IMG/VR virus record: IMGVR_UViG_3300033076_000726
Location: 1-55,239 of that record
DNA: 55,239 nucleotides
Strand: one strand, 5' to 3'
Origin: a virus
Taxonomy: Duplodnaviria; Heunggongvirae; Uroviricota; Caudoviricetes
Within the stretch, counting starts at the first letter, position 1. Each line of letters begins with the position of its first letter. This document shows positions 23,242 through 44,476 of this stretch, piece after piece. A program made the position numbers and the translations under genes. A model generated the notes under the pieces. The model did not search any database. It was not told the DNA's origin and saw nothing but the letters and a program-made list of their open reading frames with translations.

Positions 23242-24650
23242 GTCATAAATTAGGTGTATGTATACCATACAGAAATAGAAAAGAACATGTTGAAAGATTG
23301 ATACCACATCTTTCTAAACAATTAACTGAACAAGGAATTGAACATACATTTTATGTTGGACATCAGATAGATGACAAATTATTTAACAGAGGTGCAATGA
23401 AAAATATCGCAGCTCATGTTGCATTTGAAGATGGTTGTGATTACATTGCTTGGCACGATGTTGATATGTTATCATATAACATTGAAGGTCACATTGGTGG
23501 GGATTATTCGTATCCCGAAGAAAACCCAATACATATTGCAACAAAATTATCAAAATATAATTATGGATTAGGTTACGACCAATACTTTGGTGGTGTGGTT
23601 CTATTCACAAAAGAACAAGCCTATGAAACCAATGGTTATTCAAATGAATATTGGGATTGGGGTCAGGAAGACGATGACCTTTTTTGGAGATGTTATTATG
23701 AGGGAATGACAACTGGTAAAGTTTTTAAAAAATATGAAAATAAGAAGGTTTTAAATTTTACTGGTGAGAACTCATACGTTGCAATTCCAACTAATAGGGA
23801 AATAAGTTCTGCGTTAAGAGATGACCATACCATATCAATTTTATTTAATGCAGAACAACAAGAAAATAAAGTACCAATTTGGTTGGTTGGTGATTTAGAA
23901 AAAAGATTCATAGAGTATCCACTATTAAGAAAAGACGGGTCATGGACTTGGGGTTTATCATTTAACAATTCAAGAGCGGTGACAATGTTATACCACGATA
24001 AGTCAAACCATCCAATTTATAATTGGGCAAAAAGATTTGAACATCTATGGACTTGGGTTACTTTATCATATTCAAAAGAAAAAAGTCAAATCTATTTTTA
24101 TATAAATGATGAATTGATTTGTCAAATGAATGGAATTAAACAAAATGAACCATTTCCTGTTCACGGTGAATTAAAATCACATGATTCCATTAAACCATTC
24201 TTGATTGGATTTTGCAATCATTCAAACACATTTTATAAAGGTAAAATTGCCGAGGTAAAAATGTACAATAGGTTTTTTGAAAACATAAATGATGTATTTG
24301 ATTCGAATGATACAATTATGACATTTAATGATGAATCAATTTATAATAATGTGTTAACAACTGAAGAAGATATTGAGGTTATTGAAAACATATTACCATA
24401 TAGAAGAGAAGGTTCGTTTTATTGTTTACCACATGAAGATGAGGGATTTGTTAATGGCAGATGGAAAAAAGGTGAGACTACCGCAAGAAACGAAAGAAGA
24501 TTTGTTACAGAAATGCAACAAGGAAAAATAAATTATAAAGAAGATGGTTTAAGTCAAATTATGAATGTTTTGGAGATTGATAACATCGATGAATCATTAT
24601 ATTCAAACACCAAATTCATAAATGTAAAAATGACAACAAACAATGCTTAA
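23238..24650 (+). CDS. Second GT7 glycosyltransferase with inserted LamG domain
   Basis: FNRGAMKN, AWHDVDML, YFGGV, NGYSNEYWDWGQEDDDL; LamG-like FTGENSYVAI...FYINDE...YKGKIAEVKMYN. Confidence 0.85.
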   Translation: MSHKLGVCIPYRNRKEHVERLIPHLSKQLTEQGIEHTFYVGHQIDDKLFNRGAMKNIAAHVAFEDGCDYIAWHDVDMLSYNIEGHIGGDYSYPEENPIHIATKLSKYNYGLGYDQYFGGVVLFTKEQAYETNGYSNEYWDWGQEDDDLFWRCYYEGMTTGKVFKKYENKKVLNFTGENSYVAIPTNREISSALRDDHTISILFNAEQQENKVPIWLVGDLEKRFIEYPLLRKDGSWTWGLSFNNSRAVTMLYHDKSNHPIYNWAKRFEHLWTWVTLSYSKEKSQIYFYINDELICQMNGIKQNEPFPVHGELKSHDSIKPFLIGFCNHSNTFYKGKIAEVKMYNRFFENINDVFDSNDTIMTFNDESIYNNVLTTEEDIEVIENILPYRREGSFYCLPHEDEGFVNGRWKKGETTARNERRFVTEMQQGKINYKEDGLSQIMNVLEIDNIDESLYSNTKFINVKMTTNNA

Positions 24651-25482
24651 TTTAGTTACAGTTGTAGGAAGAAATACACATATATTACCACATATGTTAA
24701 AACACTATGAAAGTATTGTGGATAAAGTATATGTTGGTGTTTATAGACAACACGAAGGAGATGGGATATTAGAAGAAGTAAAAGAGTTAGGAATTGAACC
24801 ATTTTTAGTTGTAACCGAACCAAAATATAATTGGAACAAGGTGACAGAGATGTATAATGAGATTAAACGTACCAAACCTGACGAATGGTGGATTGTTTCT
24901 GACGATGACGAACTTCAAGTATATCCATATGATATAAGGGATATAATCAAAGAATGTGAAGATAATAAATTTACATTTGTTACTGGTGGATTTTTAGATA
25001 GATTGGGTGACGGAGGAACATTCCCAATTGTGGAAAGAGATAGTGATATCCACAAGTTATTCCCATATGCGGGATTTTTTAGGTACCCAATGTCAAACGC
25101 ATGTCCAAATAAAGTAACTTTAATGTTAGGTTCTCAAGACATTACGTCAGGACAACATTATGCCGATTTTGGATACAATAAAAATAGTTGGGGTAGATGG
25201 CACAGAAAACGTATGCCAATTGATATTGTATTCACACAAGTACATCATTTCAAATGGGACTCAACGTGTAATGTTAGAATTAAAGAAGTTGCAGATACTC
25301 GAATAGAATATAGTTGGTTTTGGGAATACGAAAAATTATATGATAACTTAGCATCAAGTAATTGGGTGGTTGATTTAAAAAATCCTGAGTACATGTTTGA
25401 AAAATTGGATAATTTTTCGTATATTGACTTTAATGATTACTCTAAGTGGAATATTCTTAGAGATAAAATAGTACTAATCTAA
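24643..25482 (+). CDS. GT2/GT92-like glycosyltransferase
   Basis: WWIVSDDDELQVYP (DxD-like), VTGGFLDRL, QVHHFKW. Confidence 0.6.
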   Translation: MLNLVTVVGRNTHILPHMLKHYESIVDKVYVGVYRQHEGDGILEEVKELGIEPFLVVTEPKYNWNKVTEMYNEIKRTKPDEWWIVSDDDELQVYPYDIRDIIKECEDNKFTFVTGGFLDRLGDGGTFPIVERDSDIHKLFPYAGFFRYPMSNACPNKVTLMLGSQDITSGQHYADFGYNKNSWGRWHRKRMPIDIVFTQVHHFKWDSTCNVRIKEVADTRIEYSWFWEYEKLYDNLASSNWVVDLKNPEYMFEKLDNFSYIDFNDYSKWNILRDKIVLI

Positions 25483-25483
25483 T

Positions 25484-26848
25484 ATGAACAAAAAAACACC
25501 AGTAAGTGATACTTTTTGTATTTTACCGTGGAATCATTTAATGATTCAACCAAACGGTAATATACAACCTTGTTGCATGACTCCACATGATATGCCAATT
25601 GGTAACACTAAAGAAGATACTTTGGAAGAAGTGTGGAATGGATTTGTTATGAAGAACATTCGTAAAAAAATGTTAAAAGGTGAAAGACCAATGCTTTGTA
25701 ACAGATGTTATATGATGGAAGATAATGGTGCGGTTAGTCCGAGAGTTAATCTTACTGATAAGTTTAGAAAAGATGTTGATAATTTAGTTAGTCAAACAGA
25801 CCCCGAAACAGGACACAGTAACACATTCACATTAAAATATTGGGATTTCAGATTTTCAAATATTTGTAATTTCAAATGTAGAATGTGTGGAACATTTGCA
25901 AGCAGTAAATGGGTAGACGATGAAATGGCATTACACGGTAAATCATTCAATGGTTTAATGAACTTCAGAAGTGAGTCTAAAGAAGACATCATGAACTATG
26001 TTGATAAATTCATTTATGAAGTTGAAGAGATTTATTTTGCTGGAGGTGAACCACTTATCATGGATGAACATTATATCATACTTGAAAAGTTAATCGCAGC
26101 AGGTAGAACTGACGTACTATTACGATACAACACCAATTTTAGTCATATCCAATTTAAAAAATGGGATTTACAAAAACTGTGGAAACCATTTATTGATAAC
26201 CCTAAAGGTAAGGTTCAATTATTCGCCTCATTAGATGCTGTTGGACCTGTTGCAGAATTAGCACGTAACGGTACAAAATGGAATGATGTACATAACAATA
26301 TTAAAACCGCTTTAAGTAGTGGTGTTGAGGTATTTGTGTCACCAACAGTTAGTATCATTAACGTATTTCATGTTACCGATTTATTTGATACGATTGTTAA
26401 TTTAGGAATTAAACCAGAATATATCGTATTCAATAATTTTCTAACGGACCCACAATGTTATGACATTAGAATTCTTCCTGAAGATTTGAAAGAAGAGTTG
26501 ATGAGAAAGTTAGAAAATTATGGTGATAGTTTACCTAATGGACCATATAAAAACGCAATTAACAACGCCATCACAGCTTGGGTTAATTTCTTATATTCCG
26601 ATTTCAATGTTGATTTATTACAGCTTCAAATTAGTAGAAGAGAATTAGTAAGAGTAACAACAATTTTAGATGTAAGAAGAAATGAAAATTTCTTAGATAT
26701 TAACCCACAATATAAAGATTGGTTTAAAGAAATTAGAGCGACGATAAAAAACTACGAAACTGAAGAATCGTTCTTTAGAGATAGAAGTTTACCAGAGCAA
26801 CAAGTTGAAGTACCTAAAACGATTGATGATAAGAAAAACGTATACTAA
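25484..26848 (+). CDS. Radical SAM enzyme with N-terminal twitch/SPASM-like domain
   Basis: FCILPW...PCC...CNRC; core SNICNFKCRMC (CxxxCxxC); YFAGGEPL. Confidence 0.9.
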   Translation: MNKKTPVSDTFCILPWNHLMIQPNGNIQPCCMTPHDMPIGNTKEDTLEEVWNGFVMKNIRKKMLKGERPMLCNRCYMMEDNGAVSPRVNLTDKFRKDVDNLVSQTDPETGHSNTFTLKYWDFRFSNICNFKCRMCGTFASSKWVDDEMALHGKSFNGLMNFRSESKEDIMNYVDKFIYEVEEIYFAGGEPLIMDEHYIILEKLIAAGRTDVLLRYNTNFSHIQFKKWDLQKLWKPFIDNPKGKVQLFASLDAVGPVAELARNGTKWNDVHNNIKTALSSGVEVFVSPTVSIINVFHVTDLFDTIVNLGIKPEYIVFNNFLTDPQCYDIRILPEDLKEELMRKLENYGDSLPNGPYKNAINNAITAWVNFLYSDFNVDLLQLQISRRELVRVTTILDVRRNENFLDINPQYKDWFKEIRATIKNYETEESFFRDRSLPEQQVEVPKTIDDKKNVY

Positions 26849-27864
26849 TGTTAAATAAAAAAGATTTTGTTTGTTTACAGCCGTTTGAGTTTACTGAGTT
26901 CTTTGACTACAAAACTTATATGTGTTGTCCAAATTGGTTACCCGTAAATTTAGGTGACCCGAATAACATTGCGGACATATGGAATTCACCCTTAGCGAAT
27001 CAAGTTAGGGAAAGTATGTTAGATGGTAGTTACAAATATTGTATCGAAGCAAGATGTCCTAAATTAACTGGATTGAAAGAAGGTAAGAGTGAGGGATTCA
27101 TGCCAAAAGAAGAGTTTTTAAAAATAAAAGAACAATACGATTATCCGGTTCCTAAAAGTGTTAAATTTAATTTTGACCAAAGTTGTAATTTACAATGTCC
27201 AACTTGTCGAGTGGAGAAAATTAACTATGAGGGAGAACAAAGAGATAGAACCGAATTGATTTTAGAAAACATTGAAACTCACTTGGCGGAGAATCTTGAA
27301 CATATCGAATGTACCGGTTCTGGCGACCCATTCTTTTCAAGAACGTTTAGAAAATGGATGATGGACTTTGACCCAAGTTTATATCCTAATTTAAAAAGTA
27401 TTCATTTACACACAAATGGAACACTTTGGAACGAATCTAATTGGACTCGTATGGGTAGAATATCTAAATTTGTTAAGTCTGCGGAAATATCTGTTGATGC
27501 AGCAACAAAGGAAACATATGAGAAGGTAAGATTGGGAGGTAAATGGGAAGATATTCAAACGAATTTGAAATACATTGCCAAAATCCCAAGTTTAGAATAT
27601 CTTACTATGTCATTCGTGGTTCAAGATTCCAATTATAAAGAAATGGAAATGTTCTATAAAATGTCAGAAGAGATATTTGATGAGACACCAATAAATTGGA
27701 TGGTGTTTTTTAATAGAATTGTAAATTGGGGTACATTTAGTGATTCTGTTTTTAAATTAAAAGATGTGGGTAATCCACAACACCCCGAATATAAGGATAT
27801 GGTAGAGATTTATAATAGACTACCAAAATCAAATAATATAAGACATAATTTAACAATATTATGA
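26848..27864 (+). CDS. Radical SAM enzyme with N-terminal Cys cluster domain (subtype B)
   Basis: VCLQPF...MCCPNWL...DGSYKYCIEARCP; core DQSCNLQCPTC; GSGDPF. Confidence 0.85.
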   Translation: MLNKKDFVCLQPFEFTEFFDYKTYMCCPNWLPVNLGDPNNIADIWNSPLANQVRESMLDGSYKYCIEARCPKLTGLKEGKSEGFMPKEEFLKIKEQYDYPVPKSVKFNFDQSCNLQCPTCRVEKINYEGEQRDRTELILENIETHLAENLEHIECTGSGDPFFSRTFRKWMMDFDPSLYPNLKSIHLHTNGTLWNESNWTRMGRISKFVKSAEISVDAATKETYEKVRLGGKWEDIQTNLKYIAKIPSLEYLTMSFVVQDSNYKEMEMFYKMSEEIFDETPINWMVFFNRIVNWGTFSDSVFKLKDVGNPQHPEYKDMVEIYNRLPKSNNIRHNLTIL

Positions 27865-29114
27865 TAGAGTGTAAGAACCTTACAAATGGTCTTAGAATTG
27901 CAACGGCAGGTACATACTTTGCATGTTGTCACACATTTAATCACCCTTTTAAAGATGAAAATGGGGATTTAATGGTTGCTAGTAAACATACGATAGATGA
28001 TGCGTTGAATAGTGTCACAAGACAAGAAATGTTAAAAGATTTTGCAAATGATGTTAGACACCCCGCATGTAAAGTATGTTGGGATGCCGAAGATGCTGGA
28101 TTTGTAAGTAAAAGACAAAGAGATAATGATACCTTTAATGCGTTTCCTGAAAGAGACCAAAACGATTTATTCTTTTTAGAATTGAATTTGGGTAACACTT
28201 GTAATCTATCTTGTAGAATTTGTCACATTTCCGCATCGTCCAAATGGAGAAATTTCCATAAAGTTTTGGAACCACATATTACAGAAAAAGAATTGGATGA
28301 TTATGTTATAAAATATTCAAGAGCATTTACTGATGATAGTTTAGTGTGGAAAGAATTAAGAAGAGTTCTACCAACAGTAAGAACTGTGGACATTTATGGA
28401 GGTGAACCCATGTTAATGAAAAAACAATGGGAAATTATTCAAGAATGTGTTGAAAATGGATATGCACAAAGACAACAAATGAGTTTCAATACTAACGGAA
28501 CAATCATAAACGACAAGTATGTTGAATTGATGAAGAATTTTCAACAAATTCGTATTGGTTTTAGTTTAGACGGTGTTGGAAAAAGATTTGAATTTTTAAG
28601 ATATTATGCAAATTGGGAAAATGTAAAAGAAAACATTAGAAATTACCAAGAAAAATTAAAAGATTGTGGAACTGAAGTTATTTTTGAAATATGTTCAACA
28701 ATTTCAATGTTAAATGTGTTATATGTTTTCGATATTGTGGATTTTGCAATTGAATCTAAAATAAAACTTATGATAGCATTTGTTCACAATCCGAGACACT
28801 TACACATCGGTTACATGCCTGATGAATATAAACCAAAAATATTGGCAATATTGGAACCAGAGTTGGCAAGAAGAAGAGAAGAGTTACTTAGAGATGCGTC
28901 AATTGACGGTAAAGATAGAGAGTTTATAACAAACCTTCTTTATCAAGCAGAAAAGGTAATTAACATGTTGAAATTACCAACTAAAGGTGAAACAAATGAT
29001 TGGTTAGAATTTAAAAGACAAACAAAAGAATTGGACGAGTTAAGAAATGAACAATTTCATGTAACTTTCCCTGAATTAGCTAAAATATATAACATACCTA
29101 AAAGTCTAGTATAA
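27861..29114 (+). CDS. Radical SAM enzyme with N-terminal twitch-like domain
   Basis: ECK...ACC...ACKVCW; core GNTCNLSCRIC; IYGGEPM. Confidence 0.9.
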   Translation: MIECKNLTNGLRIATAGTYFACCHTFNHPFKDENGDLMVASKHTIDDALNSVTRQEMLKDFANDVRHPACKVCWDAEDAGFVSKRQRDNDTFNAFPERDQNDLFFLELNLGNTCNLSCRICHISASSKWRNFHKVLEPHITEKELDDYVIKYSRAFTDDSLVWKELRRVLPTVRTVDIYGGEPMLMKKQWEIIQECVENGYAQRQQMSFNTNGTIINDKYVELMKNFQQIRIGFSLDGVGKRFEFLRYYANWENVKENIRNYQEKLKDCGTEVIFEICSTISMLNVLYVFDIVDFAIESKIKLMIAFVHNPRHLHIGYMPDEYKPKILAILEPELARRREELLRDASIDGKDREFITNLLYQAEKVINMLKLPTKGETNDWLEFKRQTKELDELRNEQFHVTFPELAKIYNIPKSLV

Positions 29115-29115
29115 T

Positions 29116-30606
29116 ATGTCAGAAAGATTATTAAAATTTAAAGAGGAAAAATTAAACTCAGTAAGCTGTAGTTTCTGTCCCGCAAAATGGTATAACGCAA
29201 CTATCGATTTAGGTAGTGGTTATAGTCGTTCTTGTTTTTTACCATTACCACACCCGATTGATGTGGATGAAATAAAAACAAACCCATCGGCATTACACAA
29301 TACATCTCATAAAAAGAAAATGAGAAAGATGATGTTGGAAGGTACACGACCTGCCGAATGTTCATACTGTTGGAAAGTTGAAGATATTGGAAGAAACAAT
29401 ATCTCTGATAGAGTCTACAGAAGTATGGAATACAAACATGAAGATATTGACATATTAAAAGACACACCTTGGGACGCAAATGTAAATTTAAGAACAGTTG
29501 AATTATCATTTGATAGAAGTTGTAATTTTGCATGTTCATATTGTAATCCAAGTTATTCAACAACTTGGGGTAGAGATATTGATAAACATGGACCATATCA
29601 AAAATTTAAAACATTGACCGCAGGTGCCTACCAACAAAATGGTTCTTGGGCTGACCCTGAAACTAAATTTATTGGTGAGAATCCGTATGTTGAAGCATTT
29701 TTAAAATGGTGGCCAGACTTATCTAAAGATTTACAAACGTTAAGAATCACTGGAGGAGAACCTTCAACAAGTCATAACTTTTGGAGATTCTTAGACCAAA
29801 TTAAAGGACAACCATATCCTAAATTAAATCTATCCATTAACTCTAACTTAGGTGTTAAAGATGAGTTGATAGATAAGTTAATTGAAACCACTAATACGTT
29901 AGATATTGAATCATTTGACATTTACACAAGTAATGAATCATATGGTGCACATGCGGAATATTTGAGAGATGGTTTAAAGTATGAAAAATGGAGAAATAAT
30001 GTAATCAGAATGATTGAGGAGGCTAACATTAGACAAATCGTTATTATGATGACAGTTACTGGTTTATCTTTAATGTCTATCACAGAATTTATGGATGACA
30101 TGTTAGAATTAAAGAAAAAATACGGACCAAATAAACCAACATTGGATTTGAATTTCTTAAGATGGCCAGGTTTTATGTCACCATTGAATTTACCTGACCA
30201 CATTAAAATGGAGGCAAAAGAAAAGATTCAAGTTTGGTTAGATAAAAATAGAGATTCTGGTTTACTATTAGAACATGAAATCACTCAAACACAAAGAGTA
30301 ATTGATTATATTGATGTTGTTGACCAAGGTCACGCAAGAGCTGAGTTTGATAAGGATAAACACTTCCACGACTTCAAAAGTTTCTACGAACAATATGATA
30401 AGAGAAGAGGTAAAAACTTTAGAGAAACTTTCCCAATGTTAATTGAATGGTATGATTCAATTCAAGTTGATGAGTATATTCCTGACGTTAAATTATCAGG
30501 TGGTGGTATGGAAGGATGGGAAACTGGTGAATATAAACCAGATATTATGAAACGTAACTTAGCAAGACAAAATAATTCACAAAGTCAAAACGATTTAAAT
30601 GGATAA
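29116..30606 (+). CDS. Radical SAM enzyme with N-terminal twitch-like domain
   Basis: FCPAKW...SC...ECSYCW; core DRSCNFACSYC; ITGGEP. Confidence 0.9.
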   Translation: MSERLLKFKEEKLNSVSCSFCPAKWYNATIDLGSGYSRSCFLPLPHPIDVDEIKTNPSALHNTSHKKKMRKMMLEGTRPAECSYCWKVEDIGRNNISDRVYRSMEYKHEDIDILKDTPWDANVNLRTVELSFDRSCNFACSYCNPSYSTTWGRDIDKHGPYQKFKTLTAGAYQQNGSWADPETKFIGENPYVEAFLKWWPDLSKDLQTLRITGGEPSTSHNFWRFLDQIKGQPYPKLNLSINSNLGVKDELIDKLIETTNTLDIESFDIYTSNESYGAHAEYLRDGLKYEKWRNNVIRMIEEANIRQIVIMMTVTGLSLMSITEFMDDMLELKKKYGPNKPTLDLNFLRWPGFMSPLNLPDHIKMEAKEKIQVWLDKNRDSGLLLEHEITQTQRVIDYIDVVDQGHARAEFDKDKHFHDFKSFYEQYDKRRGKNFRETFPMLIEWYDSIQVDEYIPDVKLSGGGMEGWETGEYKPDIMKRNLARQNNSQSQNDLNG

Positions 30607-31888
30607 GAATTTTAATGAAGAAACCTTTTGTGTGGCACCGTGGGTGTCCACACATTTAAGTACATTTGGTAACATAATCCCTTGTTGTCTTTATAAACAA
30701 GAAGACCACCAAGTATTTGGACAATTAAAACAAGGTATACCAATTAAGGACGCATATAATTCAGATGTTGCCAAAGAAGTAAGAAGAGCTTTATGGAATG
30801 GTGAAAAAATAGATGCGTGCCAAATTTGTTGGTACAGAGAAGAAGTATCCAAAGGTAAGAGTATAACTGACAGTTATCGTTACAATTTGAATAATCATTT
30901 TATGAAATATATCGATGACATTGTTGCAAATACGAATGACGATTTTTCATTAAAAGAAGTTAACTTTAAAATGATTGACTTACGTTTTGATAATAAATGT
31001 AATTTAAAGTGTCGTATCTGTAATCCAAGTTACTCCTCGTCTTTATATAAAGAATATAAGGAATTGGGTTTCACCAATTTTAAAGATTTGGGACAACCAT
31101 ATAGTCAGTCAATTGATAGTGATGACTACGAATTTATCCTAAGTCAATTACATAATGTAGATGTTTTATTCTTTGCTGGTGGTGAACCATTAACACAAGA
31201 TAAACACTACGAAATTTTACAATATTGTATCGATAAGGGTTACGCCAAAAACATTTCAATTTGGATTACCACTAATTTAACAAAGATTCAATATAAAAAC
31301 TATAATCTTGTTGAAATGTGGAAACACTTTAAACGTATTGAGGTTACTGCAAGTATTGATGGATATGGCGCAAGAGGTGAATATCTAAGAAATGGTTCAA
31401 AATGGTCACAAGTTGTACAAAATAGAATTGATATTCTAAGAGAATTACCTGATATCTATTTTGCTATTGTCCCCACCATCAATATCATGAATAGTTACAC
31501 CATTATTGATTTATACAAAGAGTTTGTTACTGCGGGTTATATTAAAACGGGACATATGCATGTTAATCTATTAACACATCCGGCACATATGCAGATTCGT
31601 AATTTACCTGAAAATCATAAGGTTATCTTAAGAGAAAAATACGCAAAAATTATGGATTGGATTAGAGAAACTTATCCATATGATAATGAGGCACAAAAAG
31701 ATATCGAACAGTTTGAGTTTATACTTGGATTACTTAACCAAGACCGTTCTGAGGAGGAATTTCAACACTTCCTTAAAATGACCGATGTTGTTGACACATA
31801 TAGAGGTGATGACTTCTTTGGAGTGTTTACAGAATTCCAAGACTTCAATCCAAAACAAGAAACTAAACCTGTTGTAAATTTAATATAG
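30599..31888 (+). CDS. Radical SAM enzyme with N-terminal twitch-like domain
   Basis: FCVAPW...PCC...ACQICW; core DNKCNLKCRIC; FAGGEPL. Confidence 0.9.
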   Translation: MDKNFNEETFCVAPWVSTHLSTFGNIIPCCLYKQEDHQVFGQLKQGIPIKDAYNSDVAKEVRRALWNGEKIDACQICWYREEVSKGKSITDSYRYNLNNHFMKYIDDIVANTNDDFSLKEVNFKMIDLRFDNKCNLKCRICNPSYSSSLYKEYKELGFTNFKDLGQPYSQSIDSDDYEFILSQLHNVDVLFFAGGEPLTQDKHYEILQYCIDKGYAKNISIWITTNLTKIQYKNYNLVEMWKHFKRIEVTASIDGYGARGEYLRNGSKWSQVVQNRIDILRELPDIYFAIVPTINIMNSYTIIDLYKEFVTAGYIKTGHMHVNLLTHPAHMQIRNLPENHKVILREKYAKIMDWIRETYPYDNEAQKDIEQFEFILGLLNQDRSEEEFQHFLKMTDVVDTYRGDDFFGVFTEFQDFNPKQETKPVVNLI

Positions 31889-35403: not shown

Positions 35404-35741
35404 GTAAAAAGTATGCATTGTTCATCGGAAGATGGCAGACATGGCACGAAGGACACAGATGGTTAATTGACCAACAATTAAACAAAGGTAAAAACGTTTG
35501 GATAGCTATTAGAGATGTGGAGGTTGACGAAAACAATCCCAAAACATCAAAAGAGGTTTTTGATAATTTAAAAGTAGAATTGAGTGATTTATTACAAACG
35601 GGTAAATTGTTCATTTCAGTAATTCCCGACATTGAATCAGTAAACTACGGTCGAGGTGTGGGTTATGAAGTTATCTATCACGAACCACCACCCGAAATTG
35701 CAGTAATAAGTGGAACAAACATTAGAAATGGTTCACTATAA
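35400..35741 (+). CDS. Minimal HIGH-superfamily (cytidylyltransferase-like) nucleotidyltransferase
   Basis: LFIGRWQTWHEGH (HxGH) and C-terminal ISGTNIR. Confidence 0.75.
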   Translation: MSKKYALFIGRWQTWHEGHRWLIDQQLNKGKNVWIAIRDVEVDENNPKTSKEVFDNLKVELSDLLQTGKLFISVIPDIESVNYGRGVGYEVIYHEPPPEIAVISGTNIRNGSL

Positions 35742-35998: not shown

Positions 35999-36006
35999 TA
36001 TTTATA
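35999..36006 (+). promoter_or_regulatory. TATTTATA motif, candidate late promoter element
   Basis: aagTATTTATAgtt, same context as 11733-11746. Confidence 0.5.
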
Positions 36007-36028
36007 GTTAGTAAAATATTTTATATAT

Positions 36029-37921
36029 ATGAAAGGAACTTTTTTTTCGGCGGATTTCGTAACAGACAAGGACGACAATCTACGTCTAATTGAAATTAAC
36101 ACCGATACTGGTATATTGGAGTCACAAAAGTGGGTTTTTGATTGGACCGACTTTATTAGTGTGTTAAGTGCAAATAATATTACGGAGGTGGAAGTGGTGT
36201 ACAAATATGACATCCAAAAAGATATCATTTCAAGTTTATCAGAGGCATTAACGGCAAATGCACCGTTTATCACCTCTTTTACCGAACACATAGTTGCCGC
36301 AGATTCCATATTTCCAACATCACCAACAGATTCGACAAACAAGTTTATCATTAGATTTGCTTATGATGAGTCGGCTATTTTGGACTCCGAATATGCTAAA
36401 GGAACATTAAACCTATTAAAACTATTTGCCGATGCTGGTGATAGTGGTTCTATTACAAATTTCTACCACTCATCATCATATTACGGTAGTTACAATACTT
36501 TAGATACTAACCAATTTAACGGTAGTAATTTACCCGATATTGTTACAAAAACAGTGTTGGAAGCGCACCAACCGCATAAGTTCTATAAAATAGGTAATTC
36601 AGATTCGGGTTCTTTAGTGAGATATGAAAGTTTCATTGACAGAATTGCAACATCTGACAATATTTTACAACAATACCACATCCCACAATCACAAATTACA
36701 AAAGGAACTGTAAGTTCTATCCGTAGTTTCCAAATTGTATATGGGTCTAATTTAGATGTATGTTATGTTGCACAATATGAAATTGATTCAGTATTAGACT
36801 TACCAACATCAATTACATATGACGATAGTCGTATTGATAATTTAATCGAAAGTAAACATTATTACGAATACGCGACCAATACAATTAAAAACACAAACCA
36901 CGGACTTTTAGAAAATGAAACCATTTTAGATGTTGATGGAAATGAGGTTCAAGTTAAAGATGTTGTTTTAGGTAACACATACAAATCGTATTATGTTGCG
37001 GGTTCACCTAATACCGATGATTATGATGTGTTGAGACAATGGTATGTTACAGGTTCAACATTACCTGAAGGTTCTTATTTAACTTCATCTGTATTGGTAG
37101 GTAAATTCGAAGCAACAACATTTGCAAATGACATGACAGAAATTGTATTCCAAGACGGTTCTGATATTGTGATTGGTGGTGAAGCAAGAATGTTGGTTTA
37201 CAATCAATTAGAAGATAAAATCCAATACGTTAGAGTATCTGAATTAAACAGTAATTACTCAGTAATTGGTCAAACGGGATTAAATCCAATAAGTCAAATA
37301 AATTTAAATATTTACGACGAAGAACAACCAATATACAACATGAACATGGAAGATGTCGATAACTTTATTTTAAGTAACGGTAACTTATTAACATTCTATA
37401 TTACTCACAACTTAGGTATTTCAGGTAGTTGCTTTAAGGCAGGTACCAAAGTAAGAATGGCTGATGGTACAGAGAAGAACATTGAGGATGTACAAATTGG
37501 TGACCAAGTAATGTCATATAATGAAACAACAAACGAAATTGAACCTAAAGAGGTAATCGATTTAAAACAACCAATTCATAATGATTTGGTAAAATATACA
37601 TTCGATAAAGTACTCATTAAGGCAACTGAACCTAGAGAGGAAGATGTTATGTTAACATTAACATGTACACAAGACCATCCGATATATGTAAATGGTTTAA
37701 ATTTGGCATCATATCACCCAGGATTAACAATTCAAAGATATAATTTAGGTAGAGATATTAAAGCACTTGAAAGTGACGATGTGGTTAATTTATATGATGG
37801 TACAACATCAGTATTGAATAAATTACAAAGATTACCTGAAGTTGACACTCAAACTTACATCATAACCGTAGCAGATAATCACAATTTCTACGCAAATAAC
37901 ATATTAGTACACAACAAATAA
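36029..37921 (+). CDS. Circularly permuted ATP-grasp-like domain fused to two tandem Hint domains
   Basis: N-terminal SADFVTDKDDNLRLIEINTDTG (ExN near the N-terminus, as in GSP synthase/eukaryotic GSH synthase-type folds). Hint1: GLLENETILDVDG...ITHN (res 292-461). Hint2: CFKAGTKVRMADG...TQDHP...NFYANNILVHNK (res 468-630). Confidence 0.7.
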   Translation: MKGTFFSADFVTDKDDNLRLIEINTDTGILESQKWVFDWTDFISVLSANNITEVEVVYKYDIQKDIISSLSEALTANAPFITSFTEHIVAADSIFPTSPTDSTNKFIIRFAYDESAILDSEYAKGTLNLLKLFADAGDSGSITNFYHSSSYYGSYNTLDTNQFNGSNLPDIVTKTVLEAHQPHKFYKIGNSDSGSLVRYESFIDRIATSDNILQQYHIPQSQITKGTVSSIRSFQIVYGSNLDVCYVAQYEIDSVLDLPTSITYDDSRIDNLIESKHYYEYATNTIKNTNHGLLENETILDVDGNEVQVKDVVLGNTYKSYYVAGSPNTDDYDVLRQWYVTGSTLPEGSYLTSSVLVGKFEATTFANDMTEIVFQDGSDIVIGGEARMLVYNQLEDKIQYVRVSELNSNYSVIGQTGLNPISQINLNIYDEEQPIYNMNMEDVDNFILSNGNLLTFYITHNLGISGSCFKAGTKVRMADGTEKNIEDVQIGDQVMSYNETTNEIEPKEVIDLKQPIHNDLVKYTFDKVLIKATEPREEDVMLTLTCTQDHPIYVNGLNLASYHPGLTIQRYNLGRDIKALESDDVVNLYDGTTSVLNKLQRLPEVDTQTYIITVADNHNFYANNILVHNK

Positions 37922-37927
37922 TATACC

Positions 37928-38074
37928 ATGGCATCAAAGACAATTTACAAAAAAATTACTTTAGTCCAATCACAAACAAGAACACTTACTTTGTTAACGG
38001 ATGCAACTAAAAAACAAAAAGTAAACACAGTTGTAAGTAATTTTATTCAATATTTGAAGAACGCACACTCTTAA
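37928..38074 (+). CDS. Small 48 aa basic Thr/Lys-rich peptide (absent from ORF track)
   Basis: MASKTIYKKITLVQSQTRTLTLLTDATKKQKVNTVVSNFIQYLKNAHS; fills the gap 6 nt after the Hint gene. Confidence 0.6.
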   Translation: MASKTIYKKITLVQSQTRTLTLLTDATKKQKVNTVVSNFIQYLKNAHS

Positions 38075-38083
38075 TAGAATGTT

Positions 38084-38722
38084 ATGAAAAATATTTGGGT
38101 GTTTGGTGATAGCTTCACCGACAAACGTATTCTTTCCAATAATAACACATATACAGATTGGAAAGGATACGTACCAAAAACTTATCACGAAATATTAGGT
38201 GAACAATTAGGATTACCTGTTAAAAATTTTGCTGAGAGTTACGGAATGGATAATTACACAATATTTCAAACCTTGTGTAACAATATAAACGAAATCAATC
38301 AAGATATTATAGTTATCAATTGGAGTGAACCTGTTAGGTTTAGACTGGTTGATACTGCAACACAAAAATGGAGAACGGCATTACCCGTTAAAAGTTCAAG
38401 GGTTGCGAGAGGATTACCTTATGTAAACGGAGTAAAAGACGAAACTATTTTAGATGTTTTCACCAATAGAGAAAATCAATTATGGTTAACAGAAATTGAT
38501 AGTTGGATAAAACTTATTAACAGAGCATTATCAGATTCAATAGTTATTCATTGGACTTGGCACAACAACACACAATATCAATCAATAACCGAAGAAACAA
38601 ATGGTGAGGTTGTTGATTTTCACTATTCTGAGAAAGGTCATTTAGATTTGGCAAATTGGATATTAGAACAAATAAAGGTGGGTACAAATAAAAGTCCTTA
38701 CAATCAAAATTCAATACTATGA
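38084..38722 (+). CDS. SGNH/GDSL-like hydrolase or acyltransferase
   Basis: WVFGDSFT (block I Ser) and DFHYSEKGH (DxH). Confidence 0.65.
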   Translation: MKNIWVFGDSFTDKRILSNNNTYTDWKGYVPKTYHEILGEQLGLPVKNFAESYGMDNYTIFQTLCNNINEINQDIIVINWSEPVRFRLVDTATQKWRTALPVKSSRVARGLPYVNGVKDETILDVFTNRENQLWLTEIDSWIKLINRALSDSIVIHWTWHNNTQYQSITEETNGEVVDFHYSEKGHLDLANWILEQIKVGTNKSPYNQNSIL

Positions 38723-39276
38723 TAAATTACGAAGGTATTGTTTTCACTAAAGATGAATGTGAAGATATAAAAAACAAGGCGGACGAATGGATGGAGGCCA
38801 AACTATTAGTAAAAAGAGGTTTAGGTGAAGTTGAGGATATTGTCATCCAAAACAAAAGATATAACAAAGCGTCATATTTTAAATTAAAAAATGATTCACC
38901 ATATTATCAAAAATTAAACAATTCAATCAATAGTTTCGGTTATGAACTTATTGCAAATGAGTTAGATGCGGGAATATTAAAGTACGAAAAGGGTAATTTC
39001 ATTTTTCTCCATAATGATTTACCAATTGAAGGGGAAAAGAGATTTTTCTGTATCGTCACACAATTAAGTGACGATAGTGATTATGTTGGTGGTGATTTTA
39101 GATACCTAATTGATAATCAACCACACACAATGATTAGAACCATCGGTAATGCGATTATGTTTAAACCAGAAGTCCTACACGAGGTAACAATGGTAGAAGG
39201 TGGAACTAGGTTTTCATTGGTAATATGGGTTAATTATGAACAGGTAAAATCTTTAACTAAACCTTCCCTTATCTAA
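38719..39276 (+). CDS. 2OG-Fe(II) oxygenase (prolyl-4-hydroxylase-like)
   Basis: KYEKGNFIFLHND (HxD), YVGGDF, LHEV, RFSLV. Confidence 0.85.
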   Translation: MINYEGIVFTKDECEDIKNKADEWMEAKLLVKRGLGEVEDIVIQNKRYNKASYFKLKNDSPYYQKLNNSINSFGYELIANELDAGILKYEKGNFIFLHNDLPIEGEKRFFCIVTQLSDDSDYVGGDFRYLIDNQPHTMIRTIGNAIMFKPEVLHEVTMVEGGTRFSLVIWVNYEQVKSLTKPSLI

Positions 39277-39905
39277 TGCCAAATCTTTTTGTTTATGGTT
39301 GTAGTAATAGTGAATCTTTTAACACTAAAGCTCATTGGGCAATAAATTATGTTAAATGGAAAGGATACATACCAAAAACTTATGGTGAATTGATAAGTGA
39401 TAAATTAAATCTTAATTTAATAAATTACTCCAAATCAGGGACAAACAATCAATTTATTTTTCAAAAAATATGTGAGACTTTTAAAAAAATAAAAGAAGAT
39501 GATGTTGTTATTGTTCAATGGACAAACGTTATTCGTTTTAGGCTTGTAAACGACAAAAACGAATGGGTTGAATTTTATTACGGTAATGATGATTATTTAA
39601 AAAAACTCAATCAATTTGAAAACATATCTAAACAAACGATAACTGAAATTTTTGTAAATAGAATGAACCCAAAATATTTAGAAGAAATCAAAACTTGGGA
39701 GTTAATTATAAAACAAGTTTTAAATAAAAACAAATTACTATTTTGGTCACCATTTGAGGAATTCAACAGTTATCATTTATTGGAAAGAATTGAAACCGAA
39801 ACCAATGGAGAAATTCACGATATACACATAAGTGAAAATGGACATAAAGATTTAAGTGAGTTACTTTTAAAAGATTTAAATACTAATAAAATAAATTTTA
39901 TATGA
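39276..39905 (+). CDS. SGNH-like protein, paralog of 38084
   Basis: FVYGCS, WKGYIPKTY (cf. WKGYVPKTY), TNGEIHDIHISENGH. Confidence 0.65.
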   Translation: MPNLFVYGCSNSESFNTKAHWAINYVKWKGYIPKTYGELISDKLNLNLINYSKSGTNNQFIFQKICETFKKIKEDDVVIVQWTNVIRFRLVNDKNEWVEFYYGNDDYLKKLNQFENISKQTITEIFVNRMNPKYLEEIKTWELIIKQVLNKNKLLFWSPFEEFNSYHLLERIETETNGEIHDIHISENGHKDLSELLLKDLNTNKINFI

Positions 39906-40603
39906 GTGTTGGGGTTTGTTCAATTGCATACGGTAAAGAACACGTTAATGAATGTAAAAATTTGATAAGTAAAATCAATACAGAATTTTACGTATTAACG
40001 GATGATGAAACATTTGTAACGGATAACTCAATTGTGGATAAAACTACGTTTAATTTTAACAAAAAAAGAATTCCAATACTTGAGGCATTTAAAAAACACG
40101 ACACGGTAATATGTTTTGACACAGATATTGATTTAAAAACAAATATTGACCACAACCAATTCGAAAACATTGAAGATGGATTATATGTAAAGTGGTTTGG
40201 TGGTTTACAATTCATCAGAGGATATAAAATATCTATAAATCAAATATTAAAAAGCTCAACACCGTTTGATGATTTAAATCAATATGGAACGGCGTTAACA
40301 GAATGTGGTGCTAACGAATCTAACATCGGTTTTTTTGATGAATATGTCTTTGTTTTAAAAATTAGAGATGAAAATAAAAGAAAAGAATTCATATCTAATT
40401 GGGAATCAATAAACAACAGAACCATAAATAGACAACCTAAAGATAGACATGGTAAAAATTTAAATGGTGCGGTTGAAAGTCTCATTATATCATTAGCTTG
40501 TAATTTAACTGGAATTTCGTTATATTTTACTGAGTTACAACCGTTTTTTAATGCAATCGTACATTATGATTCGGTTCAACCACCATCTAAAACGATACTA
40601 TGA
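39902..40603 (+). CDS. GT-A-like protein, paralog of 20164
   Basis: VGVCSIAYGKEH...VICFDTDIDL (DxD). Confidence 0.5.
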   Translation: MSVGVCSIAYGKEHVNECKNLISKINTEFYVLTDDETFVTDNSIVDKTTFNFNKKRIPILEAFKKHDTVICFDTDIDLKTNIDHNQFENIEDGLYVKWFGGLQFIRGYKISINQILKSSTPFDDLNQYGTALTECGANESNIGFFDEYVFVLKIRDENKRKEFISNWESINNRTINRQPKDRHGKNLNGAVESLIISLACNLTGISLYFTELQPFFNAIVHYDSVQPPSKTIL

Positions 40604-41358
40604 AATTAGTTTGGACATATAATATTTTAGCCAAAGTTGGCAATAAAACCGAGGAGAGAAAAAGAATACTAATCAATTATTACATATTGTCCATCCAATC
40701 GGCAAAACGATTGGGATATTATTGTGTAATTTATACCGATTCATTTTCTGCAAAATACTTTGAAAAAATTGTTGACGAAATACACATTTACGACCACTAC
40801 GAAAATTCAATACAATGGGATTGTTATAAGATAAAAGCGTGTGAAGAAAGAGACGATGATTTTGTTTTAATTGATGGGGACGTAATTCTACATTCCAAAC
40901 TACCACCTATGAATGATGATGTGATGTTTGACACATATGAGGTTGCAAATTGGAAAGATGAGTATGAACCTGTAATAAATCAATTTACAAAATTAGATAT
41001 TGACAAAATAATTGATGTTTGGTGTGATAAAAGAAAACCCGTATTCTCATGTGGGATTCTTTATTTTAAAAATGATTCAGATAGAAAGTTTTACGTCGAC
41101 CAATGGAAAAAATACAACAATTTCTTAAATGAAATTATAAAAACAAATGAGGTTGATGTGGATGTTGCAACAATGGTGGGAGGACAATATTTGGTAACCT
41201 TGTGTGCAAATCATTTGAACTTAAGTAGAAGTTATTTAACCCCACATTTAGGTGCAACTGGTAATTCATATAAACATCACTGCGGAGCATTAAAATACAA
41301 TAACCCAATTGTCCCAAGGGATTACATAATAAGTGTTGAAAATAAAATTTTAATTTAA
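40600..41358 (+). CDS. GT-A-like protein (DUF6734-like)
   Basis: LSIQSAKRLGY..VIYTDS...FVLIDGDVIL (DxD)...CGIL. Confidence 0.5.
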   Translation: MKLVWTYNILAKVGNKTEERKRILINYYILSIQSAKRLGYYCVIYTDSFSAKYFEKIVDEIHIYDHYENSIQWDCYKIKACEERDDDFVLIDGDVILHSKLPPMNDDVMFDTYEVANWKDEYEPVINQFTKLDIDKIIDVWCDKRKPVFSCGILYFKNDSDRKFYVDQWKKYNNFLNEIIKTNEVDVDVATMVGGQYLVTLCANHLNLSRSYLTPHLGATGNSYKHHCGALKYNNPIVPRDYIISVENKILI

Positions 41359-42401
41359 TGAAGTTAGATTTAAGAAAACATTATATATGTAAAGTTCCCT
41401 TTGAATATATGGAGGTTCACCATATGGGAGTTTATAGTTGTTGTCCCGCATGGTTACCAACAAAACTTAGTGATATTAAAGATGTGTCAACAGTATGGGA
41501 GAGTGATACTTTAAAAGAGGTACAGGAATCCATATTAGACGGGTCATATTCACATTGTGTCGAAGAACTTTGCCCAGTATTATCTGAGTTAGTAAATCAA
41601 GGTACGGTAGATAGAGGGTTTTTTATTACTAAAGAAGAGTTTTCAAAAAACGATTATAGTAATCCAAAGATAATAAACTATTCATTTGATAGGAGTTGTA
41701 ATCTTTCGTGTCCAAGTTGTAGGAAGGAATCAATAATGGCAAATTCGGAAGAAATTAGCGAGATTGATGTAACAATAAAAGAAATTGAATCCACATATGG
41801 TGAGAAACTAAAGGGACTATATCTATCTGGTACTGCAGACCCATTTGCTTCGAAATCATTTCGTAAATTATTAACTCAATTTGATAGAACAAAATACCCA
41901 AATGTAAATGACATCCATTTACACACTAACGCTATTTTATTAAATCAAGATATGTGGAATAAAATGAGTAAAATACATTCAATGATAAGAATCATTGAAA
42001 TTAGTATTGATGCCGCAACAAAAGACACATATGAGATTGTTAGAAGGGGAGGTAATTGGGATACTCTTATAGAAAACCTTAAATTCATATCAACCTTACC
42101 AATAGGTGAGAAAAGAATATCTATGATTGTACAGGACACTAACTTTATGGAAATGGAAGAATTCTATAATTTGATGTCTGAAATATTCAAAAATAAAGCA
42201 AGAATTTATTTTAAAAGAATTGATAATTGGGGAACATTCACAGAAGAAGAATTTAAAGAAAAGGAAGTATTCAAAGAGGACCACCCAATGTTTAATTTAT
42301 TTTTATTACAACTACTAAAAATTGACAAGAAACATAATTCTTTTCATAATATGCATGACATTGTTTTAAAACATTTAAAAAAAGAAAAAAACATCATATA
42401 A
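41358..42401 (+). CDS. Radical SAM enzyme, subtype B (paralog of 26848)
   Basis: ICKVPF...SCCPAWL...DGSYSHCVEELCP; core DRSCNLSCPSC; GTADPF. Confidence 0.85.
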   Translation: MKLDLRKHYICKVPFEYMEVHHMGVYSCCPAWLPTKLSDIKDVSTVWESDTLKEVQESILDGSYSHCVEELCPVLSELVNQGTVDRGFFITKEEFSKNDYSNPKIINYSFDRSCNLSCPSCRKESIMANSEEISEIDVTIKEIESTYGEKLKGLYLSGTADPFASKSFRKLLTQFDRTKYPNVNDIHLHTNAILLNQDMWNKMSKIHSMIRIIEISIDAATKDTYEIVRRGGNWDTLIENLKFISTLPIGEKRISMIVQDTNFMEMEEFYNLMSEIFKNKARIYFKRIDNWGTFTEEEFKEKEVFKEDHPMFNLFLLQLLKIDKKHNSFHNMHDIVLKHLKKEKNII

Positions 42402-42970
42402 TGGAAAAAATTGTTTTAAGTAAAAAATATTCAATATATAAGATAAAATTCAATACCCCGTTAATGAAGGGGTATGTTGAAAGAGCATATCAAGTAATTG
42501 AATTAAAAAAAACACATAAAACTGATAGAAACCATTTTTTCTATATCCCATTTAATTGTACCGAATTAGAATTATTAAATAATATAGTTATTCAATCATG
42601 TGAGAAGATAGAAAATAAGAGAAGTAGAGAACATGCGATTCAAAATTGGGTGTATATAGTTAACAATAATTCAGAGGTTGAATTATATCATACACATATA
42701 GATTTAATTGACGGAGATTCAAGAATAAAAACCGATTGGACATTTTGTTTCTATATACAAGTACCTGATAGTGATGGTAAAATTTCATTTAAAACGGAAG
42801 ACAACATAGAACATGAATTTTTACCGGAGGAAGGAGACATATATATTTTTCCACCAGATTTATTACATACACCAAGAACGATACATAATTTCAGCAAGGA
42901 TAGAATTTTAATTGCTGGCAACATAAGTCTAAATCCACTTAAAAAAATAAATGATAAAAACATTTTCTAA
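42401..42970 (+). CDS. Putative 2OG-Fe(II) oxygenase
   Basis: NWVY...YHTH...WTFCFYIQVP...PEEGDIYIFPPDLLHTP...RILIAGN. Confidence 0.7.
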   Translation: MEKIVLSKKYSIYKIKFNTPLMKGYVERAYQVIELKKTHKTDRNHFFYIPFNCTELELLNNIVIQSCEKIENKRSREHAIQNWVYIVNNNSEVELYHTHIDLIDGDSRIKTDWTFCFYIQVPDSDGKISFKTEDNIEHEFLPEEGDIYIFPPDLLHTPRTIHNFSKDRILIAGNISLNPLKKINDKNIF

Positions 42971-43436
42971 TTTATTGGATGATAATGAAATGGAATACAT
43001 TTTAACTAAATGTAAATCATTTGTTAAAAACAACAAAACAATCCCTGATGGTTTAAATTGGTTTTATAATAGTATGCATCTATATGACGATACTAATTTA
43101 GATGAATTTAAAATGAAGATGTTAGACGTTGTTGGAATAGATTACCACATTCAACATAATGGAATTTTTATAAATAAAATTACCGAAAAAACAAACCAAA
43201 ATGATTCATATCATAGAGATGAGAGTGATTTAACCATCGTTACTTATATAAATGATGATTATATTGGTGGAGAATTTGAATATGTCATAAATAATGAAAT
43301 TAAAATATTAAAACCACAACCAAACTTATCTGTCATGATGGATAAGAAAATATTACATAGGGTTTTACCTGTTATTGAGGGTGAAAGATATAGTTTAATA
43401 ACTTGGTTTAGATTGGTAAATAAGAACATTATATGA
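42951..43436 (+). CDS. 2OG-Fe(II) oxygenase (prolyl-4-hydroxylase-like)
   Basis: YHRD, TYINDDYIGGEF, LHRVLPV, RYSLI. Confidence 0.85.
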   Translation: MIKTFSNLLDDNEMEYILTKCKSFVKNNKTIPDGLNWFYNSMHLYDDTNLDEFKMKMLDVVGIDYHIQHNGIFINKITEKTNQNDSYHRDESDLTIVTYINDDYIGGEFEYVINNEIKILKPQPNLSVMMDKKILHRVLPVIEGERYSLITWFRLVNKNII

Positions 43437-44476
43437 AACCAGATTTAAAAAATTATATATGTTTAAATCCATTTAAAATATTGGAAATGCATGAGTATTT
43501 CCATGCTTTGTGTGTTCCTGAATGGTTATTAAAATACATACCGGTAGATACTAAGGTTGAGGATATTTGGAATTCGGATATTGCAAAACAAATCAGAGAA
43601 TCCGTAACCGATGGCTCTTATAAATTCTGCGACACCGAACAATGTCCATATTTGAGTCACCTACTTAGATACAATGAAGTAGATGATAAAGGTCCAATCA
43701 TACATAAATCAAAGTTACCTGAGAATTTCTTTTCAGAAAAAAGTCCTAGTAGGATTGATTTCGATTTTGATAGAACTTGCAATTACAAATGTCCATCATG
43801 TAGAAAATCTGTTTATACTGCAGATAAAGAAAAAATCGAAGAGGTTAAAAATACGATTAGTGATATTGAAAATGTGTTTGGTAATGATGTTGAAGAATTA
43901 TATTTAAGTGCTAGTGGAGACCCCTTTGCATCGGTTTCATATAGAAACTTTCTACGAAATTTTGACCCACTAAAATTCCCTAAATTAAAAAATATCCATT
44001 TCCACACCAACGCATCTAATTGGTCCAAAGAAATGTGGGAAACGATGCCAAATGTCCACAATTATGTTGGTTCCTGTGAAATTAGTATTGATGCTGCAAC
44101 AAAAGAAACATATGAAACCAAAGTTAGATTAAACGGTAAGTGGGATAGGTTAATTGAAAATTTAAAATTCATAAGTACAATAAAATCTTTAAAATTGGTA
44201 AAGTTATCCTTTGTAACCCAACAAAAGAACTATAAAGAAATGAGAATGTTTGTTGACATAATGAAAGATATATTCGGTAAAAAACTTTTGGTGTTGTTTG
44301 TAAAGATAAATAATTGGGGGACATTCACAGAGGAAGAATTTTTAAAAGAAAAAATATGGGACCCGAATCATCCAGAACATTCTGAATTTATAAAAGAAGT
44401 GATTAAAATACACGGAGACCCTCAAGTATATCATAATTTCCACGAGTTTATTGTTGCAAATAAAAACCTCATATAG
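43433..44476 (+). CDS. Radical SAM enzyme, subtype B
   Basis: ICLNPF...LCVPEWL...DGSYKFCDTEQCP; core DRTCNYKCPSC; ASGDPF. Confidence 0.85.
   Translation: MKPDLKNYICLNPFKILEMHEYFHALCVPEWLLKYIPVDTKVEDIWNSDIAKQIRESVTDGSYKFCDTEQCPYLSHLLRYNEVDDKGPIIHKSKLPENFFSEKSPSRIDFDFDRTCNYKCPSCRKSVYTADKEKIEEVKNTISDIENVFGNDVEELYLSASGDPFASVSYRNFLRNFDPLKFPKLKNIHFHTNASNWSKEMWETMPNVHNYVGSCEISIDAATKETYETKVRLNGKWDRLIENLKFISTIKSLKLVKLSFVTQQKNYKEMRMFVDIMKDIFGKKLLVLFVKINNWGTFTEEEFLKEKIWDPNHPEHSEFIKEVIKIHGDPQVYHNFHEFIVANKNLI

Follow-up and report, generated by a model that had tools for sequence, protein, structure and literature searches.

A short C-terminal peptide, two hydrophobic residues that usually follow a lysine or an asparagine, is shared by unrelated enzymes encoded in an island of the tailed phage (Caudoviricetes) recorded as IMGVR_UViG_3300033076_000726, and this tail is selected as protein. 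We lean towards the view that it serves tailoring enzymes as a docking or address tag and that its most likely reader would be an untagged protein of the same island in which an ATP-grasp ligase is fused to Hint domains (the ligase-Hint protein). The window, that is, the whole stretch of 55,239 nucleotides (nt) analysed here, makes up the first 55 kb of a viral contig of 119 kb, which has 32.7% GC and is estimated to be 36% complete. Its genes lie on the + strand throughout, and its 42 long open reading frames (ORFs) were translated for the comparison of tails. The first-pass annotation had singled out 13 island enzymes with a common ending K-x-[LI]-[IL]. The tails are indeed there: KIVLI, NLTIL, PKSLV and VVNLI at four genes, and then NSIL, KPSLI, KINFI, SKTIL, NKILI, EKNII, DKNIF, NKNII and NKNLI, in this order, in a run of nine consecutive genes (38084-44476). 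Structural genes have other endings, as had been claimed. The motif, however, was drawn too narrowly, as its strict form is present in only five of the 13; what all of them share is the terminal hydrophobic pair, usually with K or N before it. The 13 genes belong to approximately seven families (radical SAM family A three times, SPASM-type radical SAM twice, SGNH twice, 2OG-Fe(II) oxygenase three times and three singletons), so that their tails are not fully independent of each other. For 11 of the 13, the family has tagged relatives in other phages.

Is the tail a property of the proteins or an accident of the way in which their genes overlap? The first-pass annotation itself had cautioned that overlapping starts might bias the ends of upstream genes, which was reasonable because the genome lacks Shine-Dalgarno sites and has A/T-rich, tATAT-like contexts before ATG. 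On this account the tail would be a nucleotide-level by-product of such start contexts, combined with paralogy. The ATGA type of overlap forces a final NNA codon, and codon usage in the tails, although close to internal usage, somewhat over-uses ATA (58% versus 41% internally). The counts nevertheless argue against a by-product. Taking as tagged any gene whose last two residues are both from ILVFM, 13 of the 21 island genes qualify versus 13 of 125 in the remaining genome (Fisher p = 8e-7), and ILVFM doublets occur at 7.3% of internal protein positions. When only coupled genes are compared (next gene overlapping or no more than 15 nt away), 12/16 are tagged in the island versus 8/82 elsewhere (p = 2e-7); the motif is thus far from equally frequent among all coupled genes of the genome. 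Even for ATGA overlaps alone the island stands out, with five tagged genes out of six versus 5/17 outside it.

Relatives of the island genes provide the evidence on which we base the claim of selection at the protein level. For the radical SAM gene at 41358, 119 of 120 database homologues, down to 49% identity, end in two hydrophobic residues, mostly as K-K-x-x-x-L-I, and the only one without the tail is an apparently truncated protein of 259 amino acids (aa). The 2OG oxygenase at 42951 has 52 tailed homologues out of 53. In the SGNH family the tail is present in 93 of 150 representatives, including nearly all the close ones, and is missing from many of the distant ones. Within single families the last two residues are spelled with TTA, TTG, CTT, CTA or CTG for leucine and ATA, ATT or ATC for isoleucine. 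Likewise within single families, the tails precede all three stop codons and are followed by gaps, both short and long, as well as by overlaps of the ATGA and TAATG types. In the window, the C-rich codons reported for some tails (cct tcc ctt atc; aac ctc ata) and the intergenic gap after 44476, which measures 36 nt, were both found as described.

Related loci were retrieved by alignment-based scans of viral contigs; a scan with the SGNH protein on its own gave no matches. The 80 viral loci collected around radical SAM family A have 1578 ORFs, of which 801 (51%) are tagged; convergent gene ends bear the tail in 52% of cases, and ends with more than 50 nt after them in 32%. In 76 control viral loci, fetched around tail-less members of a B12-type radical SAM family and with 31-44% GC, tagged ORFs number 93 out of 1123 (8.3%), which is the background level. 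Thirteen cellular homologues of radical SAM family A are untagged, including two from genomes of 33% GC. Orthologues keep the tail when the downstream neighbour changes, whether the gene end is followed by a long gap, a convergent gene or any type of overlap. As neither synonymous codons, nor the choice of stop codon, nor any downstream arrangement does away with the tail, we conclude that it is a terminal peptide selected as protein, and the central proposal of the first-pass annotation, a signal at the protein level, is strongly supported by these observations together with the untagged cellular homologues and the control loci. The nucleotide by-product reading, to which we give hardly any credence, is effectively excluded.

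How widely is the tail distributed? Besides most enzymes of the island, their counterparts in hundreds of related phages end in it. Clustering of 1531 proteins, taken from this genome and the 80 loci, gave 81 families present in at least three loci, and these are bimodal: 30 are tagged in at least 80% of members, 40 in 20% or fewer, and 11 lie between. The tagged families include three 2OG groups, radical SAM family A, SGNH, sulfotransferase-like and SET-domain families and many uncharacterised ones. Among the untagged families are the ligase-Hint protein, the carbamoyltransferase, the APS-kinase-like protein (APS, adenosine 5'-phosphosulfate), the small protein that has the GRWQxWHxGH motif, Hsp20, a methyltransferase, a fusion of GT4 and FkbM, and proteins of structural appearance that end in CGWRA. 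At the level of families the consensus is K(-4)-[S/T](-3)-L(-2)-I(-1)-COOH, with further lysines at -5 to -7. The consensus last residue is isoleucine in 23 of the 30 tagged families, and all 13 window tails end in I, L, V or F. Cultured relatives lack the tail: none of 43 genes of Methylophilales phage Melnitz ends in a tail preceded by K or N, the dioxygenase array of Syn9 has no tagged end among 23 genes, and cultured Kyanoviridae contain distant 2OG homologues that are untagged. Among 50,697 phage records nothing was matched by megablast with the island, nor by tblastn with the ligase-Hint protein or with radical SAM family A. A B12-type radical SAM enzyme of 715 aa, encoded beyond the window at 95885-98032 of the contig, ends in KKTLI. 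Only the 12 closest of its 120 homologues are tagged, and these mark roughly the point at which the family gained the tag. Taken as a whole, the distribution indicates that the tag is restricted to one viral lineage, which has added it to captured genes of approximately 30 unrelated families, and that it is limited to tailoring enzymes grouped next to a single untagged ligase-Hint gene.

We propose that the K-[S/T]-L-I-COOH tail is a short linear tag for docking or address, which would project from the last structural element of unrelated tailoring enzymes, namely radical SAM, 2OG oxygenase, SGNH, glycosyltransferase-like, SET and sulfotransferase-like proteins and several uncharacterised families. 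In the model of the 161-aa oxygenase (mean pLDDT 91.7), the last strand and the fold end at residue 155, residues 156-161 are coil and the confidence falls to 45 at the final residue. The tail has these features of short linear C-terminal address tags in general: the same terminal peptide is found on unrelated folds, lies outside the folded domain and is conserved as protein. The phage lineage appended the tag to captured genes, and the tag would plug any newly acquired enzyme into one shared partner, most likely the untagged ligase-Hint protein at the centre of the tagged run. The enzymes would in this way be recruited to a common macromolecular substrate. Of all the readings that we considered, docking with the ligase-Hint protein as the most likely reader is the one that we find somewhat probable; both the docking function and the identity of the reader are inferred. 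A single shared partner would explain why the tag is placed on the shuffled, hypervariable run and not on the donor-substrate enzymes of the same operon (carbamoyltransferase, APS-kinase-like and small nucleotidyltransferase-like proteins), which are untagged. Recruitment to a shared macromolecular substrate would fit this split between tagged tailoring and untagged donor supply within one operon, and the lack of domains for the recognition of peptide leaders: no PqqD/RRE domain (RRE, recognition element of RiPPs, the ribosomally synthesised peptides with post-translational modification) turned up in Pfam scans of 30 island proteins and representatives of families.

Why the ligase-Hint protein? 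The order of the island is conserved: carbamoyltransferase, kinase, small nucleotidyltransferase-like protein and ligase-Hint protein, with a contiguous, shuffled run of tagged genes after or around them. The tagged genes form contiguous runs that adjoin the untagged ligase-Hint gene. In a complete relative of 238 kb, 38 of 300 genes end in a hydrophobic doublet; they are concentrated at 90-135 kb, with background levels outside that zone, and ten consecutive tagged genes (115207-123444) lie to either side of the ligase-Hint gene at 118083. This gene is present in 61 of the 81 sampled loci and is tagged in none. Both complete tag-bearing genomes have it too, and ten contigs without the tag, of which two are 95% complete or more, lack it. 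The co-occurrence is suggestive of a role for the ligase-Hint protein, though it is confounded by shared ancestry. In the window the gene occupies 36029-37921 and was identified by Pfam Hint matches, alignment and a structural model. The first part of the protein is a circularly permuted ATP-grasp domain with an E-x-N motif at the N-terminus, and its model matches YgiC/YjfC and glutathione synthetases. The putative metal- or ATP-binding residues E22, N24, K174 and R232 are invariant in 32 ligase-Hint sequences. The second part is a Hint/BIL (bacterial intein-like) domain that keeps the terminal His-Asn, and its model matches BIL and intein domains. In most of the relatives, which were aligned from loci L007-L079, the protein ends (I/V)-E-H-N and continues into a hypervariable, Cys-rich peptide of approximately 20-45 residues, an extension with the look of a self-releasing precursor. 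The window and the two relatives closest to it have a second Hint domain, ending VHNK, in place of the Cys-rich peptide. Three ligase-Hint relatives of approximately 912 aa carry three Hint-like stretches. A small ORF that follows the Hint gene (37928-38074) was considered as a detached Cys-rich peptide and rejected. For both glutathione synthetase and glutathionylspermidine synthetase, the group acted on is a peptide's C-terminal carboxylate, and the chemistry of the candidate reader may fit, as its modelled ligase domain resembles YgiC and glutathione synthetase.

Several observations weigh against docking to the ligase-Hint protein. The co-occurrence of tag and ligase-Hint gene is a comparison of two complete genomes with two, confounded by shared ancestry and by the conserved gene order, and the binding is putative. 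The ligase-Hint protein of this window has no Cys-rich peptide, yet the tags persist, so that the tag cannot require such a peptide fused in cis. Some of the tagged genes are 40-70 kb away from the island (78746, 95885 and 110004), and some families are tagged in part, such as the SPASM-type radical SAM enzymes (2/5) and the GT9-like proteins (7/12). Moreover, there is no co-variation at -3/-4 across unrelated families, as might be given by a fast-evolving, genome-specific reader. When tails were permuted within families over 18 dereplicated loci, no excess of co-variation was seen at -2 to -6 among unrelated families of one genome, and a modest excess was seen at -1 only (identity of I or L, 0.489 versus 0.439, z = 5.5). 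The agreement at -1 may be an effect of composition or of overlap, and there is no sign of genome-specific flavours of the tag.

This uniformity of the tag across clades fits a conserved reader, for example a host protein, and it is one reason to weigh a second reading. Under this view the tail would be an address read by another protein, of the host or encoded elsewhere in the phage, that brings the enzymes to a compartment, a chaperone or the place where virions are assembled, for example, and the ligase-Hint protein would be no more than a syntenic neighbour. The tagged genes far from the island are also in line with it, as is the presence of an Hsp20 gene in 26 of the 81 sampled loci. Searches for such a reader among the phage genes were negative. 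This contig (G000) and two complete related genomes (G016 and G017) have no PDZ domain (PF00595 and PF13180, with PF17820 left out of the search; control genomes were matched), encode no S41 tail-specific protease (PF03572) and contain no encapsulin shell gene (PF04454). Hsp20 was set aside as reader, as it is limited to those 26 loci, belongs to the core genes of untagged cyanophages as well, and has a groove that binds I-x-I motifs rather than adjacent hydrophobic pairs. An address read by some other protein is an unlikely alternative, though the strongest of those that we weighed. A complex prediction for residues 1-467 of the ligase-Hint protein and the 2OG oxygenase 42951-43436 gave a score of 0.00; it was run without controls and is evidence neither way. 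The first-pass annotation had suggested a PDZ-like ligand that recruits enzymes to a scaffold. The PDZ part is at odds with the lack of PDZ domains in the three phage genomes, while the Hint protein, already named there, stands as the best candidate, by gene-order co-occurrence only.

Could the tail instead mark the enzymes for degradation? A basic stretch followed by a non-polar C-terminus recalls the MuA-type ClpX signal RRKKAI-COOH (C-motif 2), and non-polar C-termini destabilise proteins in Escherichia coli, so that the tailoring enzymes might be short-lived. ClpP is encoded by one of the two complete relatives and missing from the second. If it were destabilising, the tag would need to have arisen convergently and been retained in some 30 families, while sparing the enzymes of donor supply in the same operon. 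In addition, the strict preference for L-I and the frequent S/T at -3 suggest a specific pocket, and we regard a degron as improbable. A weak membrane-targeting motif, made of a polybasic stretch and two hydrophobic residues and bringing the enzymes to a lipid-linked glycan intermediate, would be in keeping with the lysines at -4 to -7, the hydrophobic end and the glycosyltransferases of the island. Yet there are just two hydrophobic residues, next to a charged carboxylate, without amphipathic periodicity, and three glycosyltransferases (21820, 23238 and 44513) have no tag; among the functional explanations we give this one the least weight.

A further possibility arises from the ligase itself. 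The tail could be the substrate of the ATP-grasp domain, which would activate the free isoleucine carboxylate and join the enzyme covalently to an amine, for instance that of the peptide released by Hint. The match of the fold to YgiC and glutathione synthetase and the invariance of E22, N24, K174 and R232 would suit such chemistry, a free C-terminus is the one feature of every tagged protein, and the C-termini of proteins are where other ATP-grasp enzymes act, namely RimK, LysX and tubulin-tyrosine ligase. On the other side, this is pure inference without precedent for tagging some 30 enzyme families in such a way; the ligase-Hint protein of the window lacks the peptide, and the ligase could equally act on the carboxylate of the peptide itself. 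We consider it highly doubtful that the tail is a ligase substrate. A phage protein-ligation system, in which enzymes are tethered to their substrate or to a common carrier through the Leu-Ile carboxylate and an amine of the Cys-rich peptide or another amine, seems to us just as doubtful; if true, it would be a C-terminal conjugation chemistry unlike that of ubiquitin or Pup. The readings that involve another reader, a degron or membrane targeting are all rated below docking to the ligase-Hint protein.

How does the tail compare with known systems? Like class I PDZ ligands (x-[S/T]-x-hydrophobic-COOH), it consists of a free C-terminus with a hydrophobic last residue, short and unstructured, on unrelated proteins. 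S or T stands two before the last residue in 16 of the 30 tagged family consensuses but in only four of the 13 window tails, and five of the 13 have N there. The tail differs in that its next-to-last residue is held to Leu, Ile or Phe, whereas PDZ ligands need no such residue, and in that no PDZ domain was found in three of these phage genomes. The peroxisomal targeting signal type 1 (PTS1), of the SKL-COOH type and read by the TPR protein PEX5, is similarly a C-terminal peptide of three to four basic and hydrophobic residues placed on many folded enzymes for one reader. The consensus of PTS1 is [SAC]-[KRH]-[LM], whereas in the phage tail the next-to-last residue is L, I or F and not basic, K is at -4 and the last two residues are hydrophobic; moreover, the setting is a bacterial virus, with no known organelle. 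The cargo-loading peptides of encapsulins and the encapsulation peptides of microcompartments are likewise short terminal peptides on co-encoded, unrelated enzymes, with a partner encoded nearby. They are longer than the phage tail, the three phage genomes have no encapsulin shell gene, and we know of no sequence consensus between the two. A further parallel is that of RiPP leaders and RRE domains, since many tailoring enzymes, including radical SAM-SPASM proteins and hydroxylases, would be gathered on one precursor-like protein with a hypervariable Cys-rich peptide. The polarity would be reversed, as the label is on the phage enzymes and the folded reader would be on the precursor. The degrons of ClpX C-motif 2 and ssrA share with the tail a basic stretch, a non-polar last residue and a free carboxylate, a resemblance of sequence only, whereas the phage tag is kept by approximately 30 enzyme families and is absent from same-operon neighbours.

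The tagged part of the window opens with a GT2-like glycosyltransferase of 279 aa (24643-25482, tail KIVLI), which has a weak Pfam match to PF13704 and no orthologue among the sampled loci. It is followed by radical SAM genes. The family A paralogue of 338 aa at 26848-27864 (NLTIL) belongs to a family in which 86 of 86 non-window members in the related loci are tagged. Family B, the SPASM-type radical SAM enzymes, has five paralogues here, two of which are tagged: 27861-29114 (417 aa, PKSLV) and 30599-31888 (429 aa, VVNLI). The other three are untagged, namely 25484-26848 (KKNVY), 29116-30606 (DLNG) and 31888-33120 (ESFK). In four of the five paralogues (25484-33120) the SPASM-like Cys-rich domain is N-terminal, with the Pfam match near residues 4-78, and not C-terminal as is usual; 29116-30606 has no SPASM match. 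Next come the untagged genes that precede the ligase-Hint gene. The carbamoyltransferase, a maker of donor substrate (33142-34809, PF02543/PF16861), ends in LLYK, and among its 36 non-window relatives nine have a hydrophobic doublet at the end, HKIL in eight. The APS-kinase-like P-loop kinase (34966-35403, PF01583) ends in KLNI, and none of its 23 non-window relatives is tagged. The small protein of 113 aa at 35400-35741 has no Pfam match and none of its 38 non-window relatives is tagged; we read its GRWQxWHxGH motif as a HIGH-type nucleotidyltransferase signature. We had considered this protein as a PDZ-like adaptor and rejected it, as the motif resembles a nucleotidyltransferase signature. 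The kinase and the 113-aa protein are kept as a pair in up to 39 loci, and they may be a minimal module that supplies 3'-phosphoadenosine-5'-phosphosulfate (PAPS) or another activated donor to a sulfotransferase-like tagged family.

Beyond the ligase-Hint gene lies the run of nine. It begins with an SGNH hydrolase of 212 aa (38084-38722, QNSIL; 28 of 29 non-window family members tagged), a 2OG-Fe(II) oxygenase of 185 aa (38719-39276, KPSLI, spelled cct tcc ctt atc; 159/179) and an SGNH paralogue of 209 aa (39276-39905, KINFI), from the family with 93 tailed representatives. A protein of 233 aa without Pfam match (39902-40603, SKTIL) has two orthologues, both ending KTIL, and the DUF6734-like protein of 252 aa (40600-41358, NKILI) has four, all tagged. 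They are followed by the radical SAM family A protein of 347 aa with the 120 database homologues (41358-42401, EKNII) and by two further 2OG-Fe(II) oxygenases, one of 189 aa (42401-42970, DKNIF; 44 of 45 non-window family members tagged) and the modelled one of 161 aa (42951-43436, NKNII). The latter gene begins 20 nt inside the former (42951-42970), and the bases that code for the upstream tail DKNIF also code, in another frame, for the downstream N-terminus MIKTFS. The run closes with another radical SAM family A protein of 347 aa (43433-44476, NKNLI, spelled aac ctc ata), after which comes the gap of 36 nt. Further tagged genes lie beyond the range first noted: a GT9-like protein of 705 aa at 47886-50003 (DKLLF; seven of 12 orthologues tagged) and genes at genome positions 78746 (RKNLI, the third tagged SGNH paralogue of the genome), 87249 (KTKLV), 95885 (KKTLI) and 110004 (RDTLI).

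Other proteins of the window have conserved endings of a different kind. Two tandem paralogues, 53228-54370 and 54387-55496, are 57% identical and both end in CGWRA; 12 of 21 relatives in other loci end in GWRA or GWRT. The window thus has a second conserved motif at the C-terminus, which occurs outside the set of island enzymes. The fibre-like paralogues 256-1848, 10159-10917, 15976-17154 and 17165-17956 share yet another ending, R-[FY]-[GSA]-[KLI] (RYGL, RFGK, RFSI and RFAI), and their relatives end in GRFGI or GRYGV.

What are the implications of such a tag for these phages? A hypervariable host-recognition island with radical SAM cassettes (PMC7029224) and arrays of dioxygenase genes that occur in cyanophages together with PAPS and sulfotransferase genes (PMC2938197) have already been described, and the passages searched in these papers do not mention the tag. 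Our literature search found no description of the tag or of a ligase-Hint-peptide system. The ending K-[S/T]-L-I-COOH provides a simple sequence rule for picking out, from thousands of unannotated viral genes, those of a single functional system, and it links approximately 30 enzyme families to the ligase-Hint-peptide protein. A portable recruitment tag of four residues could also serve in building enzyme assemblies. If the tail is a docking tag, giant aquatic phages could add or swap tailoring enzymes in a hypervariable island, with four to six C-terminal residues being enough to enrol a captured gene.

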